64,000 nt of DNA from an uncultured Candidatus Saccharibacteria bacterium. Lineage in GTDB: Bacteria > Patescibacteriota > Minisyncoccia > Phycocordibacterales > G965230995. Below are positions 12,665 through 20,957 of the stretch, piece by piece. Each line of letters opens with the position of its first letter. The stretch's first letter is position 1. The position numbers and the translations under genes were made by a program. The notes beneath the pieces were generated by a model. The model worked only from the letters and a program-made list of their open reading frames with translations, had not been told where the DNA came from and did not search any database. Location of the stretch: assembly GCA_965230995.1 (NCBI GenBank), contig OZ246398.1, positions 309,204 to 373,203 of the forward strand, in the 5' to 3' direction.

Positions 12665-13797
12665 TAGTATATTTTCTTTGTCTCTTCGATCATTTTTTCC
12701 ATCGAGAATTCTTTTGTAGAAAGTTCATAGAGAGCCTCGCCAAATTTTGTCAGGTCCTTTTTGTGTTCGAGGGCATATCTAACTGCGTGAAAAAATTCAC
12801 TTGGTATTTTTGGTTTTATGAGAAGACCTGTCTCTAGATTTTTTATTATTTCCGGTATTCCACCGACATCTGTTGCTATAACGGGAGTTCTAGAAAAACC
12901 AGCTTCGATTAGTGTGTATGGAAATGCTTCTGTTCTGGATGTTAGGGTAAATATATCAAAAGCCTTCTGATATTTCCTCGCGTCACTTATAAAACCTAAA
13001 AATTTTATTTGCTCTTCTGCTCCGAGTTCTTTTACAAGTTTTTGCAAAGATTCTTTTTCTTCACCATCTCCAATTATATAGAAACCAACATCTTTTCTGT
13101 CTCTAAGCAACCCGCTTATGCCTTTGATTGCAATATCGAGACCTTTGTTTTTGTGTAGTTCAGATATTGTTCCGATCCAAATCTTGAATTTTGAATCTTT
13201 GTCTAATTCTCGTCTCGCATTTGCTTTGGATAGTAGGGGAATTGGAAAAATTCCATTATGGATAACTTTTATTTTTTTTGCGACTGATTCTATGGCAGAC
13301 ATATCTCGTTTGGTCTTTTCCGAGACTGCTATTGTAGTATCAGTGAGAGCGACTGTGATTGTGTGTAGAATATAATAAAAAATCTTTTTAAAAATATGTC
13401 CATCTTCGTTCGATGCCCAGCCGTGAGCGGTAAAAATTATTTTTACTTTTTTATCTTTGCCAAAAGTCAGGTTGTATATTCTAGAAGCTAACGCTCCGAG
13501 GAAACCAACTTTTGAACTATTTAAATGGATAATGTCCGGAGCTTCTTTTTTAAGAAGAAAAAACATTTCTTTTAGTACAGAAAAATCAGAACTGATGTCG
13601 ATATCTCTTTTGAGATTATTTAATTCGATTGTGCGGATATTTTTTTCTGCAAGCTTTTCAGGCAGAGTTTTGCCTTGGCCATAAGCGACAGCTACATCAA
13701 AATCTGCCATTAAATTTGAAGCAAGATCAAAAACATATCTTTGCGCCCCGCCAAAATTTCCTTTTGTAATAACAAAAAGGACTTTTTTATTTGCCAT
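12661..13797 (-). CDS. glycosyltransferase family 4 (GT-B)
   Basis: N-terminal ...FVITKGNFGGAQRY... and a C-terminal EX7E-type region EAFPYTLIEAGFSRTPVIATDVGGIPEII. Confidence 0.8.
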   Translation of the reverse strand: MANKKVLFVITKGNFGGAQRYVFDLASNLMADFDVAVAYGQGKTLPEKLAEKNIRTIELNNLKRDIDISSDFSVLKEMFFLLKKEAPDIIHLNSSKVGFLGALASRIYNLTFGKDKKVKIIFTAHGWASNEDGHIFKKIFYYILHTITVALTDTTIAVSEKTKRDMSAIESVAKKIKVIHNGIFPIPLLSKANARRELDKDSKFKIWIGTISELHKNKGLDIAIKGISGLLRDRKDVGFYIIGDGEEKESLQKLVKELGAEEQIKFLGFISDARKYQKAFDIFTLTSRTEAFPYTLIEAGFSRTPVIATDVGGIPEIIKNLETGLLIKPKIPSEFFHAVRYALEHKKDLTKFGEALYELSTKEFSMEKMIEETKKIYY

Positions 13798-13877
13798 ATA
13801 TCATAAAATTGTAACAAAAAATGACTATTTTTTCCACCTTGTGTTTCTTTTTGCTTTAAGTAGTATAATTACCACAT

Positions 13878-15230
13878 ATGTCAATGATTAATAGGAAGGA
13901 GATTCTCGTGCTTTTTGTGGGGGATATTGTTGTCTTTTTTATCTCTCTGTTTATTACTCTTTATGTTAGATATGGTTTAAACATATCAGAAAAGACTTTT
14001 GTAAGTCACCTTTCTTCTTTCTCTATTCTATTTTTGGTATGGATAGTTGTTTATTTTATCTCTGGGCTTTACGATAAACACACTACAATACTAAAAAACA
14101 AATTACCGTCGATTCTTTTTAATGTCGGTCTAATTAATACTGCAATTGCTGTTCTGTTCTTTTATTTAATTCCATATTTCGGAATTACTCCAAAGACAAA
14201 CCTTTTTGTATATCTGCTTTTTTCTTTTGTACTGATGTTGTTTTGGAGAATTAAAGGATTTGAAATTGTTTCTAAAAAAAGAAAGCACAAAGCAATTGTA
14301 ATAGGAAGCGGAAGAGAAATGCAGGAGCTCATAAAAGAAGTGAACGACAATTCACGATATGATTTGCATTTTATTTCTTCAGTTGATATTGAAAATATAG
14401 ACAATATTGATTTTCAAGAAGAGGTTTTGAACCGTATCTATTCAGAAGAAATCGGTGTGATTGCTGTTGATTTGCGAAATGAAAAAGTTTCGCGTATTTT
14501 ACCAAGTCTATACAATCTGATTTTCTCTCGCGTTCAATTCATAGATATGCACAAATTGTACGAAGATATTTTTGATAGAGTCCCATTATCGCTTGTAAAA
14601 TATAGCTGGTTTTTGGAAAACATTTCACTTACACCAAGAATCGCTTATGACTTTCCAAAGAGAATTATGGATATAATCGTTGGCGGTTTGCTCGCTCTCG
14701 TTTCTCTTGTTGTTTATCCTTTTGTCATCATCGCGATTAAATTAGAAGACGGAAAAGAAATTTTTTCTGTTCAAACCAGAGTTGGTAAGAACAACAAAGA
14801 AATAAAATTAATCAAATTCAGATCGATGGCATTTACAGATGGGGGAGATTGGGAAAAAAATGGTAGAGAAAATTACGTTACAAAAGTAGGTAGCTTCATA
14901 AGAAAAACCAGAATCGATGAATTGCCACAATTATGGAATGTGCTTTTAGGAGATGTTTCTTTGATTGGACCTAGACCAGAATTTTCTAATGCGGTAAAAA
15001 AATACACCGAAGACATACCATATTACAATATTAGACATTTGATCAAGCCTGGACTTTCAGGTTGGGCGCAAATGAAGCATGACAAACATCCTCATCATGG
15101 AACAGATGTTGTTGAGACAAAAAACAAACTTTCTTATGATTTGTTCTATATTAAAAACAGATCTTTTTCTCTTGATTTAAAAATTGCACTGCAGACAATT
15201 CAAATAATGATTCTCGTAAAGGGTAGGTAA
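13878..15230 (+). CDS. polyprenyl-phosphate sugar phosphotransferase (bacterial sugar transferase, WbaP/PglB-like initiating enzyme)
   Basis: An N-terminal TM region is followed by the conserved C-terminal motifs KLIKFRSM...DELPQLWNVLLGDVSLIGPRPE. Confidence 0.85.
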   Translation: MSMINRKEILVLFVGDIVVFFISLFITLYVRYGLNISEKTFVSHLSSFSILFLVWIVVYFISGLYDKHTTILKNKLPSILFNVGLINTAIAVLFFYLIPYFGITPKTNLFVYLLFSFVLMLFWRIKGFEIVSKKRKHKAIVIGSGREMQELIKEVNDNSRYDLHFISSVDIENIDNIDFQEEVLNRIYSEEIGVIAVDLRNEKVSRILPSLYNLIFSRVQFIDMHKLYEDIFDRVPLSLVKYSWFLENISLTPRIAYDFPKRIMDIIVGGLLALVSLVVYPFVIIAIKLEDGKEIFSVQTRVGKNNKEIKLIKFRSMAFTDGGDWEKNGRENYVTKVGSFIRKTRIDELPQLWNVLLGDVSLIGPRPEFSNAVKKYTEDIPYYNIRHLIKPGLSGWAQMKHDKHPHHGTDVVETKNKLSYDLFYIKNRSFSLDLKIALQTIQIMILVKGR

Positions 15231-15307
15231 AAATTGACTTTTGCTTTCTAATGTGTTAAAGTTTTAATAGGACAAAACAAAAGTAAACCACAACGGAGGC
15301 TGATTCC

Positions 15308-15928
15308 ATGGCTGACGCTTTTTCTCTCCATAACGAATATGTAATGGAGAAGATTACCGAACGAGATTGGCAGTTCTACTATCGGGTAGATTGCTATCTT
15401 CGGAGGATTGCACGGTTCTTGATTTCGGTCCCCAAGGAGAAGATGCCATTTGGAAACTGTCATGTTATCTCCATTGCAGTTTCTCGGATTGAGCCCGAGC
15501 TCAAGGTTGAACATGGCTACCTGCTCGGACTCTCGAGGGAGGCAGACGGAACCATGATGTTACAGCCAAAGCAACATTCGTGGCTCGTGACACCTGACGG
15601 GAACATCATTGACCCATACCCTGTATGCATTGCCACAAAAGGCATCATCATGGTGTGTGCAGTCGGCGACGAAGCCTGTTGGGGGGGGGCGGGATGTATC
15701 ACCCCAGCAACGAGATTCGAAATTGGCTCGAGTCCTCGAGGCTTTGGTGGCGACGCGCAGAAGTTTGTCGCCAGATCATTTGTGGAAAGAAACCGGAGGA
15801 CATCGGCAAACATCACTGATAGTCTTCCGAAGATACTGAGCGCCACCTGGGAGGGGCGCTCTTTGTTTTTTCATTTTTCTTTAATGTTGCTTTTTGTTTG
15901 TTGCGGGTATAGACTTGCTTTTGTATGA
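15308..15928 (+). CDS. hypothetical protein in GC-rich island C, possibly a Cys-His hydrolase. Its 3' end is uncertain.
   Basis: ggagg lies 7 nt upstream of the ATG. The hairpin gcgccacctgggaggggcgc plus T-tract at ~15842-15875 falls inside the annotated 3' end, and a G9 homopolymer sits at 15681-15689. Ordered motifs: GNCHVIS ... EHGYLLG ... QHSWLVTPDGNIIDPYP. Confidence 0.4.
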   Translation: MADAFSLHNEYVMEKITERDWQFYYRVDCYLRRIARFLISVPKEKMPFGNCHVISIAVSRIEPELKVEHGYLLGLSREADGTMMLQPKQHSWLVTPDGNIIDPYPVCIATKGIIMVCAVGDEACWGGAGCITPATRFEIGSSPRGFGGDAQKFVARSFVERNRRTSANITDSLPKILSATWEGRSLFFHFSLMLLFVCCGYRLAFV

Positions 15929-17265
15929 AATACAGAATTTATTCTATAGTATTATTCGTTTTGGCGGGATTTCTTGCCTTTTTTATTTATTCATCGGAGA
16001 CAGGGGGGTATTTTTCAAAATTTAAGTTCAAGCTCGGTCTAGACCTCGCTGGTGGAACAGAATTAATTTACAAAGCAGATGTTAGTGCTATCGAGGATGA
16101 TCCGAGCGATGCAATGTCTACCTTGCGAGACGTCATCGAGAGGAGAATAAACATTTTTGGAGTTTCTGAACCATTGGTCCAGGTCGAAGAGGCTGGGCTC
16201 GTGTCTGGAAACAGGGAACATCGATTGATTGTTGAACTTCCAGGTGTGACTGACGTTAAAGAAGCTATTGCACAAATTGGAAAGACACCTCTTTTGGAAT
16301 TTAGACTCCAAAAAGAAAATGCAGAGGAGATCATAAAGCAAAATCCAAATGCTGGTGAAGACGAGATTTTTTCTCAGACTGGTTTAACTGGTCAATATCT
16401 ATCTAGAGCATCTGTGCAGTTTACTCAGTCAAGACAGGGTGCTTTCGGTGAACCTTATGTTTCTTTGGAATTCAATAGTGAGGGAAAAGAAAAATTTGCT
16501 GAAATAACGAGAAATAATGTTGGTAAAGTTCTCGCTGTCTTTCTAGACGGTAGCCCGATTTCAACACCGGTTATTCGAGAAGAAATTACCGGAGGGCAAG
16601 CGCAAATCTCTGGAGGATTTTCTGTTGATGAAGCAAAAGAGCTTGTAAGAAATCTAAATTATGGTGCATTACCAGTTCCAATTTCACTTGAGAGTACACA
16701 AACAGTTGGAGCAACACTTGGTGGGGAAGCGTTCAATATGGGAATTAATGCTGGACTTTGGGGACTTTTGCTTGTGATTGTATTCCTATTGTTCTGGTAC
16801 AGACTTCCTGGTTTTGTCGCCGTGCTTGGTTTGTTTATGTATATAGTCATTTCTCTTTCGTTGTTTAAATTAATTCCAGTCACACTTACCGCTGCTGGTC
16901 TTGCTGGATTTATTCTGTCTGTCGGTATGGCAGTCGACGCAAACATTTTGATTTTTGAAAGAATGAAGGAAGAAATGAGAAAAGGAAAGGAGATAAAAGA
17001 TTCCGCAAAAGAAGGATTTGCGAGAGCTTGGACTTCGATAAGGGACTCAAATATTTCAAGTATCATAACCGCAATCGTTTTGTTCTGGCTTGGAACTTCG
17101 AGCGTTAAAGGCTTTGCTCTTACTCTCGGAATTGGAGTTTTGGTTTCTATGTTTAGTGCAATCACGGCTTCGAGAACATTCCTGTTTGCTATGGGATTGA
17201 AAGAAAGCAAAATTGGCAGATTTCTTTTCTCGGCTGGCATTATCAATTCACATAAAAACGACTAA
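15925..17265 (+). CDS. secD: protein translocase subunit SecD
   Basis: GLDLAGGTELIYKAD..., a periplasmic domain and C-terminal TM helices; immediately followed by secF. Confidence 0.88.
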   Translation: MKYRIYSIVLFVLAGFLAFFIYSSETGGYFSKFKFKLGLDLAGGTELIYKADVSAIEDDPSDAMSTLRDVIERRINIFGVSEPLVQVEEAGLVSGNREHRLIVELPGVTDVKEAIAQIGKTPLLEFRLQKENAEEIIKQNPNAGEDEIFSQTGLTGQYLSRASVQFTQSRQGAFGEPYVSLEFNSEGKEKFAEITRNNVGKVLAVFLDGSPISTPVIREEITGGQAQISGGFSVDEAKELVRNLNYGALPVPISLESTQTVGATLGGEAFNMGINAGLWGLLLVIVFLLFWYRLPGFVAVLGLFMYIVISLSLFKLIPVTLTAAGLAGFILSVGMAVDANILIFERMKEEMRKGKEIKDSAKEGFARAWTSIRDSNISSIITAIVLFWLGTSSVKGFALTLGIGVLVSMFSAITASRTFLFAMGLKESKIGRFLFSAGIINSHKND

Positions 17266-17266
17266 C

Positions 17267-18178
17267 ATGTTCATCATTAAATACAGAAATATATTCTTTG
17301 CTATCTCAAGTGTTCTTGTGATCGCATCTATCGTCTTTATGTCTGTTTGGGGTCTTAATCTCGGAATTGATTTTACTGGGGGATCTATCGTAGAAGTGAC
17401 ATACAAAAATGAAAGACCAGATATTGAATTGGTTAGGGCAGAAATAGCCAAAGAGGGAATTGAGGGTGTGTCTGTGAGACCAACAGGGGATAAAGGATAT
17501 ACAATTCGTTCAAAACAAATTGACGAGGCAAAGAAAGAAAGTCTAATATCAAAAATATCTTTTGGTAAAACAGAAGATTTAACAGTGGAGAGGTTTAACT
17601 CAATTGGTCCTGTTGCCGGAAAAGAACTACAGAGAAAATCTTTCTATGCGATAATTGTAGTAATCATTGCAATTCTATTCTTCATTGTCTTTGCATTTAG
17701 AAAAGTATCAAAACCAGTTTCTTCTTGGAAATACGGACTTGCAACTATAATTGCTCTTGTTCACGATGTGATTGTGCCGACTGGAATATTTGTGGTTCTT
17801 GGGCGCTACTTTGGAATGGAAATCGATTTGCTATTCGTGGCGGCTCTGCTTTCTATTATGGGATATTCTGTCCACGACACCATTGTTGTCTTTGACCGAG
17901 TCAGAGAAAACTTGCTTCTAAATATTGATAATAGAAAAAAGGAATCATACGACGTGACAGTCGGAAAGGGTCTTATGCAAACAATGGGACGTTCTATAAA
18001 CACGTCTCTAACCACAATATTAGTTCTCGTTGCACTATTTATTCTGGGTGGAGAAGCCACAAAGAATTTTGCTCTGATATTGCTTATAGGAATGCTTATT
18101 GGTGCCTATTCTTCAATATTCCTTGCTAGCCCACTTTTGGTTTTGTTTCAAGGTAAGGGAGAAAATAAAGCAAAATAA
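17267..18178 (+). CDS. secF: protein translocase subunit SecF. The start is refined to the ATG directly after the secD stop.
   Basis: N-terminal GLNLGIDFTGGSIVEV, followed by TM helices typical of SecF. Confidence 0.85.
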   Translation: MFIIKYRNIFFAISSVLVIASIVFMSVWGLNLGIDFTGGSIVEVTYKNERPDIELVRAEIAKEGIEGVSVRPTGDKGYTIRSKQIDEAKKESLISKISFGKTEDLTVERFNSIGPVAGKELQRKSFYAIIVVIIAILFFIVFAFRKVSKPVSSWKYGLATIIALVHDVIVPTGIFVVLGRYFGMEIDLLFVAALLSIMGYSVHDTIVVFDRVRENLLLNIDNRKKESYDVTVGKGLMQTMGRSINTSLTTILVLVALFILGGEATKNFALILLIGMLIGAYSSIFLASPLLVLFQGKGENKAK

Positions 18179-18199
18179 AGATATTTTTAAACAGATATT

Positions 18200-18236
18200 T
18201 AAAACAAAGGCCACGCTTCGCGTGGCCTTTGTTTTT
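18200..18236 (+). terminator. terminator after secF
   Basis: aaacaaaggccacgcttcgcgtggcctttgttttt. Confidence 0.6.
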
Positions 18237-18275
18237 ATGGCTCTAAATATAGCTTAAAATCACTATGTAATGGTC

Positions 18276-18303
18276 TTGACTATAAAACGGTTCTGTATAT
18301 AAT
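18276..18303 (+). promoter_or_regulatory. candidate promoter for 16S (TTGACT-16-TATAAT)
   Basis: ttgactataaaacggttctgtatataat; the gttctgtatata core is shared with the 23S promoter. Confidence 0.45.
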
Positions 18304-18533
18304 GATGCCTACCGTTGTTTGAAAGCAACGAAGTACATTGAAAAATAAAGAACGTATTTAATTATACGTGCAAGTCACAGAATATTTTAAAATGATTTCT
18401 GGAAAATTGATCAAATCAATTCTCCTGACTAGGACGCGGAAAAATTTTTCGCATATAGCTGAAGTAAAATAATAACAAGGTAACTTGTTCCTTATTTTGT
18501 TTCGTTCACTCTTTACACAAAACCATTAGGTTT

Positions 18534-20025
<1,492 letters not shown>

Positions 20026-20329
20026 AAAACGTTAGTGCTTCTCTACAGGAGCACTAACTGAGAGGTCGGTATTGTGTATCTCGATCGAGTACATAATAGC
20101 CATCTATATGATGGAGATGAGAAAACATCTTTCAAAAATCTATACAGTTCGGAAAGACGAATACTGTAGTGAACGAAACAAAATAGGGAATAAAGCAAAA
20201 AACCGCCATAGGCGGTTTTTTGCTACCTATATATACTTGCTTTTTGCACTTGTTGTGGTATAATACATATTGAAGCCGCCTGGCGTTTCAGGCGACGTAG
20301 TTTCAGGCCCAAACCACAAGGAGTGGGTC

Positions 20330-20827
20330 ATGAAGAGCTTAATGTTGGTGGTAGCAGTGTTGCTTTGCCTCCCCGTCCGTGCGAATGGGGAACTGAGCAA
20401 ACGGATCTCGAGTGAGAGCGACTGGGCGAATGCGTTTGCCCTGATCCTTTCCCTCGAGAGCTCTGGTGGGGAGAAGAACCTCATCGGAGACAAGGGGGAA
20501 TCGTTTGGGTCTTTCCAGATCCAGGACGGGTACTTGCAGGATGCCCTGACGTGGGCGCGCAAGAATCCGTTGGATGAGAACGCCAAGGCGCTTCTCTACT
20601 GGGACAAGAAGCTGAGTGGGCTTACTCCGCAGAAGCTTCTTGGTGCACCGACGACCATCCCATGTAGTATTGTGAGGTGCTATATGGCGAGATGGGCTGG
20701 CCCCCAGCCGACTCTCGAAACGGTTCTCCGTACTCACAACGGTGGACCGAAAGACCCGAAAAAAATCAAAAAATGGGTTGATAAAACTGATCCATACATT
20801 GCGAGGGCAAAGGAGGCCCTCCGGTGA
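20330..20827 (+). CDS. secreted lytic transglycosylase (GH23; VirB1/IagB/P19-like small SLT-domain protein) in GC-rich island D
   Basis: aaggag lies 7 nt before the ATG, and the signal peptide is MKSLMLVVAVLLCLPVRANG. SLT motifs are present: ESSGGE...GESFGSFQIQDGY, ...RCYMARW... and RTHNGGP (AYNxG-like). A hairpin plus T-tract terminator lies at ~20840-20895. Confidence 0.5.
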   Translation: MKSLMLVVAVLLCLPVRANGELSKRISSESDWANAFALILSLESSGGEKNLIGDKGESFGSFQIQDGYLQDALTWARKNPLDENAKALLYWDKKLSGLTPQKLLGAPTTIPCSIVRCYMARWAGPQPTLETVLRTHNGGPKDPKKIKKWVDKTDPYIARAKEALR

Positions 20828-20957
20828 TCTGGACCGTAGCGTGAATCAGGCCGGCACTGTGGTATCCCAAGCGGGAACACGGTGCCGGCCATGACTTTTT
20901 ATACTTGTAACATTGCAGTTTTTTTGGTAGCTTTATGTAGTAGTTTGAAAGTAAACG

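Follow-up and report, generated by a model that had tools for sequence, protein, structure and literature searches.

A probable slippage frameshift at a nine-G tract in a small, apparently acquired gene for a predicted thiol enzyme of a Patescibacteria-type genome

Does the 206-aa open reading frame that precedes secD in this genome encode one protein, or has the run of nine G residues in its middle already moved translation out of the native frame and, if so, is the tract a lesion or a switch? The window (the whole stretch of 64,000 nucleotides that was analysed) holds the ORF within a GC-rich single-gene cassette located between a sugar transferase gene, which ends at 15230, and secD, which starts at 15925 (Table 1). 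The borders of this cassette are approximate, lying between 15231 and about 15290 on the left and at about 15862–15875 on the right. The initial annotation had described a GC-rich ORF preceded by ggagg and carrying a mid-gene run of nine G, and much of that description is reproduced here. Local GC is 0.52–0.58 in the gene against about 0.33 in its flanks, and the GC content of the native coding sequence (15308–15819) is 0.51 versus 0.357 in the remainder of the window. The run of nine G lies exactly where it had been placed; the motifs GNCHVIS, EHGYLLG and QHSWLVTPDGNIIDPYP are all present in the translation, and the two overlapping ORFs 15609..15839 and 15625..15819 both exist. The Shine–Dalgarno sequence is likewise real, at a distance of 8 nt from the ATG in place of the 7 nt originally given. 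The homologous locus L001 has comparable signals, with TTGACT-17-TATCTT at the equivalent relative position and AGGAGG 7 nt ahead of its ATG.

Table 1. Features of the cassette and conserved residues of the encoded protein (nucleotide positions refer to the window, residue numbers to the protein).
Feature	Position	Strand	Remarks
GC-rich single-gene cassette (island)	15231..15875	+	Promoter, Shine–Dalgarno sequence, gene, terminator
Promoter-like TTGACT-17-TAAAGT, TG ahead of the second hexamer	15234..15262	+	9/12 matches, consensus match only
Shine–Dalgarno GGAGG	15295..15299	+	8 nt ahead of the ATG
Called ORF	15308..15928	+	206 aa, uninterrupted
Putative native N-terminal CDS part, M1–G127	15308..15688	+	Frame of the called ORF; 57% identity to homologue P0002
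G9 homopolymer, putative frameshift point	15681..15689	+	Homologue has G7 at the equivalent place
Out-of-frame tail, residues 128–206 of the called ORF	15689..15928	+	Crosses the terminator and the spacer
Putative native C-terminal CDS part, GMYHPSNEIRNWLESSRLWWRRAEVCRQIICGKKPEDIGKHH and stop	15691..15819	+	-1 frame relative to the called ORF
Intrinsic terminator, 7-bp GC stem and inner 3 bp	15838..15871	+	18 nt past the predicted native stop
C51			Cys in 143/145 ungapped members, Ser in 2
H52			145/145 ungapped members
G70			148/150 members
H90			150/150 members
W92			149/150 members
D102			135 Asp and 13 Glu among 150 members

A search of the 206-aa ORF against 5.8 billion proteins returned only the ORF itself (P0001, in NCBI and Logan data, with a longest contig of 742,714 bp) and a single homologue, P0002, a 170-aa protein encoded on a 1.5-kb Logan contig. 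The BLASTP alignment of the two has 57% identity and ends at about residue 140 of the window ORF. Past the common 'CWGG' the homologue reads NMYQPNTNVRIGIESERIWLRRAEVLRRILCGRKLSEHGKHR, and this part aligns to the frame 15625..15819 (GMYHPSNEIRNWLESSRLWWRRAEVCRQIICGKKPEDIGKHH and stop), with 21 of 42 positions identical. A HMMER profile search with the two-sequence alignment as query, run against 1.84 billion cluster representatives at 50% identity, collected 180 proteins at E ≤ 1e-3, 89 of them at E ≤ 1e-10. Almost all are 155–180 aa long, and most align to profile positions of about 140–165, corresponding to the C-terminus of frame 1 (15625..15819). The called ORF itself matches the family profile over residues 1–136 only; for its residues 128–206 neither BLASTP nor the profile search found a homologue. 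Since P0002 and the approximately 180 distant clusters continue in the 15625..15819 frame, the native stop is placed at the TGA at 15817–15819, upstream of the hairpin. The suspicion that the true C-terminus lies earlier than called was thus well founded, and the comparison with homologues proposed for locating it gave this position.

Judged by these alignments, the called ORF is a chimera, in which residues 1–127 appear native and the last 79 spurious, and the predicted native product has about 169 residues, continuing in frame 1 beyond the tract. The putative native N-terminal part holds C51-H52, G70, H90-S-W-L and D102-P-Y-P. The DNA of the homologue (P0002/L001) reads TGG GGG GGC AAT ATG, which encodes W-G-G from an in-frame G7, while the window has TGG GGG GGG GCG GGA TGT with G9; the frame changes exactly at G9 relative to the G7 homologue, and the length of this intragenic tract therefore sets the frame. 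Removal of two G yields a 169-aa protein colinear with P0002; addition of one G (G10) inserts a Gly and brings the length to 170 aa. In a 150-sequence alignment 140 of 144 ungapped members keep Tyr130, which lies 3′ of the tract, and the spacing from the preceding aromatic residue (W125 here) to Tyr130 is 4 residues in 143 of 144. G7 gives this 4-residue spacing and G10 does not. With the G7 of the homologue and this constant spacing, G9 is most simply a +2 expansion, and the ancestral in-frame tract was most likely G7, according to one close homologue and the family spacing. The nine-G run had rightly been suspected as a frameshift site, and 15625..15819 is the one of the two overlapping frames that matters; it had also been regarded as part of an intact ORF liable to slip, but the gene is already out of frame. 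In comparison with P0002, pN/pS is 0.36 for the part preceding the tract and 0.40 for the part that follows it in frame 1, and the near-invariant family residues are all retained. Since the rest of the gene is undamaged, the frameshift appears to be recent.

The hairpin and T-tract noticed earlier within the called ORF are indeed there, the hairpin coordinates now being 15838–15861. It has the form GAGCGCC-A-CCU-GGG-AGG-GGCGCUC and is followed by TTTGTTTTTT at 15862–15871. In its 61-nt context the fold has a z-score of -3.6 and a free energy of -21.6 kcal/mol, a stability not matched by any of 200 shuffled sequences; a consensus terminator scan did not pick up the hairpin at 15838–15861. In L001, the homologous locus, a similar hairpin and T tract follow the stop. 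The shifted frame of the window gene reaches the terminator without a stop codon, and a transcript ending there would be a non-stop mRNA. The TGA of the read-through ORF overlaps the ATG of secD (ATGA, 15925–15928), and transcription past the terminator would let the shifted frame end exactly at the secD start codon; this overlap is probably a coincidence.

Curated models do not describe the encoded protein. In scans with Pfam, NCBIfam, PHROGs and PADLOC neither the window protein nor any of 71 family members gave a meaningful match, and none of them matched a curated family of Pfam clan CL0125. A profile search against PDB sequences gave noise and nothing else, namely a designed repeat protein in which no stretch reached significance by itself, and Foldseek found no match at E < 0.03 in PDB or BFVD. 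A structure prediction, which had been suggested as a check, was more informative. The AlphaFold 2 (AF2) model of the frame-corrected protein, built with 150 sequences, has a mean pLDDT of 93.3 and a pTM of 0.88, and the predicted fold is papain/transglutaminase-like. The pLDDT is 94–98 for residues 121–160, beyond the tract, and 76 over the last nine residues. With the two-sequence alignment only, the pLDDT was 45.6 and the model was unusable.

The helix at residues 51–61 begins at C51 (pLDDT about 97), and C51 of the predicted structure thus occupies the helix N-terminus, the place of the nucleophilic Cys in papain/transglutaminase-like enzymes. H90 lies in strand 83–94 and D102 in strand 100–102, in agreement with the His and then Asp, Asn or Glu carried by successive strands in such enzymes. 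The presumed catalytic set comprises Cys51, His90 and Asp102, with the invariant His52 adjacent to Cys51. This placement of C51, H90 and D102 points to a thiol acyl-enzyme mechanism, and the protein, predicted to be cytoplasmic, may act as an amidase, deamidase, protease or acyl-transferase. The earlier proposal of a papain-like thiol hydrolase is therefore borne out at superfamily level, whereas its NlpC/P60/CHAP assignment finds no counterpart in the profiles; only Gly (G70) of the EHGY motif used in that proposal is conserved across the family. Membership of NlpC/P60 or CHAP was rejected, as there is no PF00877 or PF05257 match, secretion signal or cell-wall context.

Proteins of the family are 155–180 aa long and solitary, without an obvious signal peptide. 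The named members are two proteins from metagenome-assembled genomes, of Candidatus Taylorbacteria and Paceibacterota, both Patescibacteria, and the family is possibly specific to the candidate phyla radiation (CPR). The gene stands alone, with an intergenic spacer on each side, and six neighbourhoods have nothing in common: YbaB–member–SecE-NusG, L2–member–hypothetical, SOUL–member, member–RNR, member–YceG and member–L21. In the standard S10 operon rpsS (S19) follows rplB. At 5001–5498 of the contig represented by L006 and L007 (JGI Ga0455669_00001624; ENA k141_1691986) a family member comes directly after rplB (L2), so the family lands inside core ribosomal-protein gene arrays; a hypothetical gene and then genes of RND, ABC and FtsX-type transporters follow on this Patescibacteria-type contig. 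A distant member with 28% identity (E = 2.7e-14) and the motifs 'INCHS...HSWVRTPDGNIIDPYP' is encoded at 680–1144 of a 1.4-kb freshwater-type metagenome contig (L002, Ga0102865_1039887) and was reached solely via a degenerate DNA pattern for DGNIIDPYP. This pattern had no genome matches, no viral matches and two metagenome matches, L002 and L003; L003 is probably a chance match and was rejected as a relative. A related-locus search of genome and metagenome contigs confirmed no relatives, and under an exact look-up neither P0001 nor the sugar transferase, in our own delimitation, had a record.

The composition and the synteny of the locus point to acquisition. In three low-GC hosts the gene is clearly richer in GC than its flanks: 0.51 vs 0.36 here, 0.49 vs 0.33–0.36 in L004 and L005, and 0.50 vs 0.44 in L001; in three others the GC of gene and flanks agrees. 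In a relative whose SecD is 72% identical (L012) a Bac_transf sugar transferase gene is followed by 72 bp and then SecD, with no gene between, and in another (L011, SecD 77% identical) nothing intervenes between the upstream gene and secD. The right-hand spacer can be recognised as a homologue of the stretch at about 15875–15924 in the window; the SecD relatives carry the label Minisyncoccota or Patescibacteria. Since syntenic relatives lack the gene, the island appears to be an insertion of about 0.6 kb with its own promoter-like site, Shine–Dalgarno sequence, gene and terminator. No convincing terminal repeats, direct or inverted, were found at its borders.

Some features of the surroundings are of separate interest. 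The window has a GC content of 36% and unlinked rRNA genes in an unusual order: 23S and 5S genes (4472–8441), the former with a group I intron at 6489–6772, are followed by some 10 kb of protein-coding genes, among them the locus under study, and then by the 16S gene (18534–20022). This arrangement is typical of CPR genomes. Along with the source contig of 742 kb and the labels of the SecD relatives, these features give the window the look of a Patescibacteria genome. Directly after the 16S gene there is a second GC-rich (about 0.49) self-contained cassette, 20230–20900, with a promoter-like TTGCAC...TATAAT, the Shine–Dalgarno sequence AAGGAG, an ATG at 20330 and a stop at 20827; it ends with a strong GGCCGGCAC...GTGCCGGCC hairpin and a T tract. 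The N-terminus of its product, MKSLMLVVAVLLCLPVRANG, resembles a signal peptide, and the protein has an 'ES..GSFQIQ' motif, which we take to be reminiscent of lytic transglycosylases or lysozymes; no Pfam match was found. Kinship of the studied gene with this GC-rich ORF (20270–20827) was rejected, the hhalign probability being 0.3%.

The tract itself is exceptional for the window, where it is the sole G or C run of at least 7. G runs of length 4, 5 and 6 occur 115, 24 and 3 times, respectively; there are none of length 7 or 8, and there is a single run of 9. Under an independent, identically distributed model 0.03 G runs of at least 9 are expected, so the observed one is well beyond chance. 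A and T homopolymers of length 6, 7 and 8 number 256, 114 and 34, with none of at least 9, and the decay of run lengths predicts about 10 or more such runs; apart from the G9 tract, the window contains no homopolymer of at least 9. Other CPR loci (L004, L005 and L009) do hold A/T runs of 9–14. The cutoff at 8 in the window may reflect selection against slippage-prone runs.

These observations are probably best accounted for by an acquired thiol-enzyme cassette that has recently undergone a slippage frameshift from G7 to G9, leaving the gene an early pseudogene or in an OFF state. In this reading a Patescibacteria-type genome would have received, between its sugar-transferase gene and secD, a horizontally acquired cassette with a gene of about 169 codons. 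The codons of the conserved W-G-G turn make up a G tract, to which replication slippage would have added two G, the most parsimonious course. Translation from the ATG would then depart from the native frame after Gly127, which would make a chimera of the 206-aa protein and leave the dominant genotype with the gene OFF. The shifted frame would drop the last β-strand (130–132) and two C-terminal helices (134–157) of the model, gain 79 unrelated residues and cross the terminator hairpin without a stop, so that the terminated transcript would be a non-stop mRNA. The frameshifted gene would be a pseudogene at an early stage or else be switched OFF by a slippage-prone tract able to revert, to G10 or G7. 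The event itself is an ordinary homopolymer slippage frameshift in an acquired accessory gene; reversible switching is possible.

A stronger version of the latter idea is that of phase variation, in which the tract frequently flips the enzyme ON (G7 or G10) and OFF (G8 or G9) within the population, the assemblies having captured an OFF majority. For other bacteria there is good documentation of poly-G phase variation (PMC8355987, PMC2831843). The G9 tract is intrinsically slippage-prone, and it is the sole such tract in a window where A/T runs never pass 8; its length also differs by two from the ancestral G7, so that at least two changes in length, or a single 2-nt event, must be assumed, and the remainder of the gene is intact. 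Against this, the two assemblies both have G9, and no in-frame allele is on record, the sole other tract length being the G7 of the 57% identical homologue. Nor is the tract a feature of the family: no G or C run of at least 5 was found in five other members at the DNA level (L004–L009). As it derives from the W-G-G codons of a GC-rich gene, it can be incidental. Frequent flipping in the population is accordingly rather unlikely, and about the same can be said of the wider proposal that the tract is a contingency switch of an acquired papain-like thiol enzyme whose OFF state would be cleanly silenced through non-stop mRNA. If true, CPR would gain its first described phase-variable locus, as far as the literature searched shows; no paper linking 'candidate phyla radiation' with 'phase-variable' was found.

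A quite improbable source of G9 is sequencing or assembly error, with a true tract in frame (G10 or G7) and an intact gene. Several platforms make errors in long G runs, no other damage is seen in the gene, and G9 is one base short of an in-frame G10. G9 is nevertheless given also by the independent Logan k-mer assembly (SRR14271367), which may share source reads with the NCBI assembly. The Logan sequence (L010, 5,643 nt) is 100% identical to window positions 12925–18567, G9 included; it was reached by an exact look-up of the window SecD and comes from a 10.5-kb Logan contig; a literature search on the run found nothing. That contig stops about 30 nt into the 16S gene, apparently as short-read metagenome contigs often do. 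A collection of about 15 billion proteins contains no in-frame allele of the gene. The interior of long, uninterrupted ORFs accommodates 113 of the 148 A/T runs of 7–8 nt, which indicates that the assembly handles homopolymers well. In addition, G10 would lengthen a turn whose length is constant in 143 of 144 members.

The full-length enzyme could in principle be restored from the G9 template by programmed recoding, either by a -1 ribosomal frameshift on G_GGG_GGG (15682–15688) or by transcriptional slippage. G GGG GGG matches the X XXY YYZ heptamer in the zero frame, though the match is purely formal, and a -1 shift would give W-G-G-G-G-M-Y... up to the native stop. This is very improbable indeed: there is no stimulatory RNA structure downstream (z = -0.71 for the 126-nt fold of 15675–15800), and the product would have an extra Gly in the turn of fixed length. 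The frameshift also lacks conservation, since the G7 homologue and every other recorded member are called as one ORF. Transcriptional slippage in bacteria is established mainly for A/T runs. It is scarcely credible that the called 206-aa ORF, although uninterrupted and present as a protein record in NCBI-derived data, is a real product with a divergent hydrophobic C-terminus, as its last 79 residues match nothing and are encoded partly by the hairpin, the T tract and the secD leader, and the conserved C-terminus is carried by another frame.

With the slippage frameshift as the favoured reading, the annotation is corrected: the 206-aa record appears to be a frameshift chimera, and the real product is predicted to have about 169 residues. 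The approximately 180 clusters (50% identity) of small solitary papain/transglutaminase-like proteins without a curated Pfam, NCBIfam, PHROGs or PADLOC model are a new finding, and the confident AF2 model, along with the candidate set C51-H52, H90 and D102, makes the family testable. The locus is also a concrete place to ask if ultra-small CPR bacteria switch genes by homopolymer slippage; a tract length uniform in reads would point to a young pseudogene on a small acquired island.

Among known systems, the closest include DUF2026 (PF09641; Atu2299/APC5867, PDB 2HLY), a family of unknown function. The structure 2HLY is classified as papain-like, with Ser replacing the nucleophilic Cys (PMC10318531). 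DUF2026 and the studied protein have 11% sequence identity, and none of the 71 members scanned gave a Pfam hit at E ≤ 0.1 to DUF2026 or to a papain-like family. Unlike DUF2026, with its Ser at the nucleophile position, the studied family has Cys in 143 of 145 members, followed by an invariant His. DUF2026 is reported from proteobacterial neighbourhoods of a defence-like kind, whereas the present family is solitary and its named members belong to Patescibacteria. The transglutaminase-like superfamily (Transglut_core, TglA 9CRN, factor XIII, TG2/TG3, PeiW and protein glutaminase) and the arylamine N-acetyltransferases are likewise among the closest systems. Neither gave a Pfam match, and Foldseek similarity was not significant; in contrast to both, the studied family has an invariant His after the Cys and a distinct helical N-terminus. 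NlpC/P60 and CHAP amidases share the broad papain-like superfamily and the Cys-His core with it.

As to the tract, the closest systems are poly-G/C contingency loci operating by slipped-strand mispairing (see PMC8355987 and PMC1891110). The poly-G/C loci of Campylobacter, Neisseria, Haemophilus and Bordetella resemble the present locus in that an intragenic tract of about nine G, rare against its genomic background, sets the frame. Here, in contrast, the tract is single, the gene is that of a predicted cytoplasmic enzyme rather than one of a set of surface or modification genes, and the host is of the Patescibacteria type.
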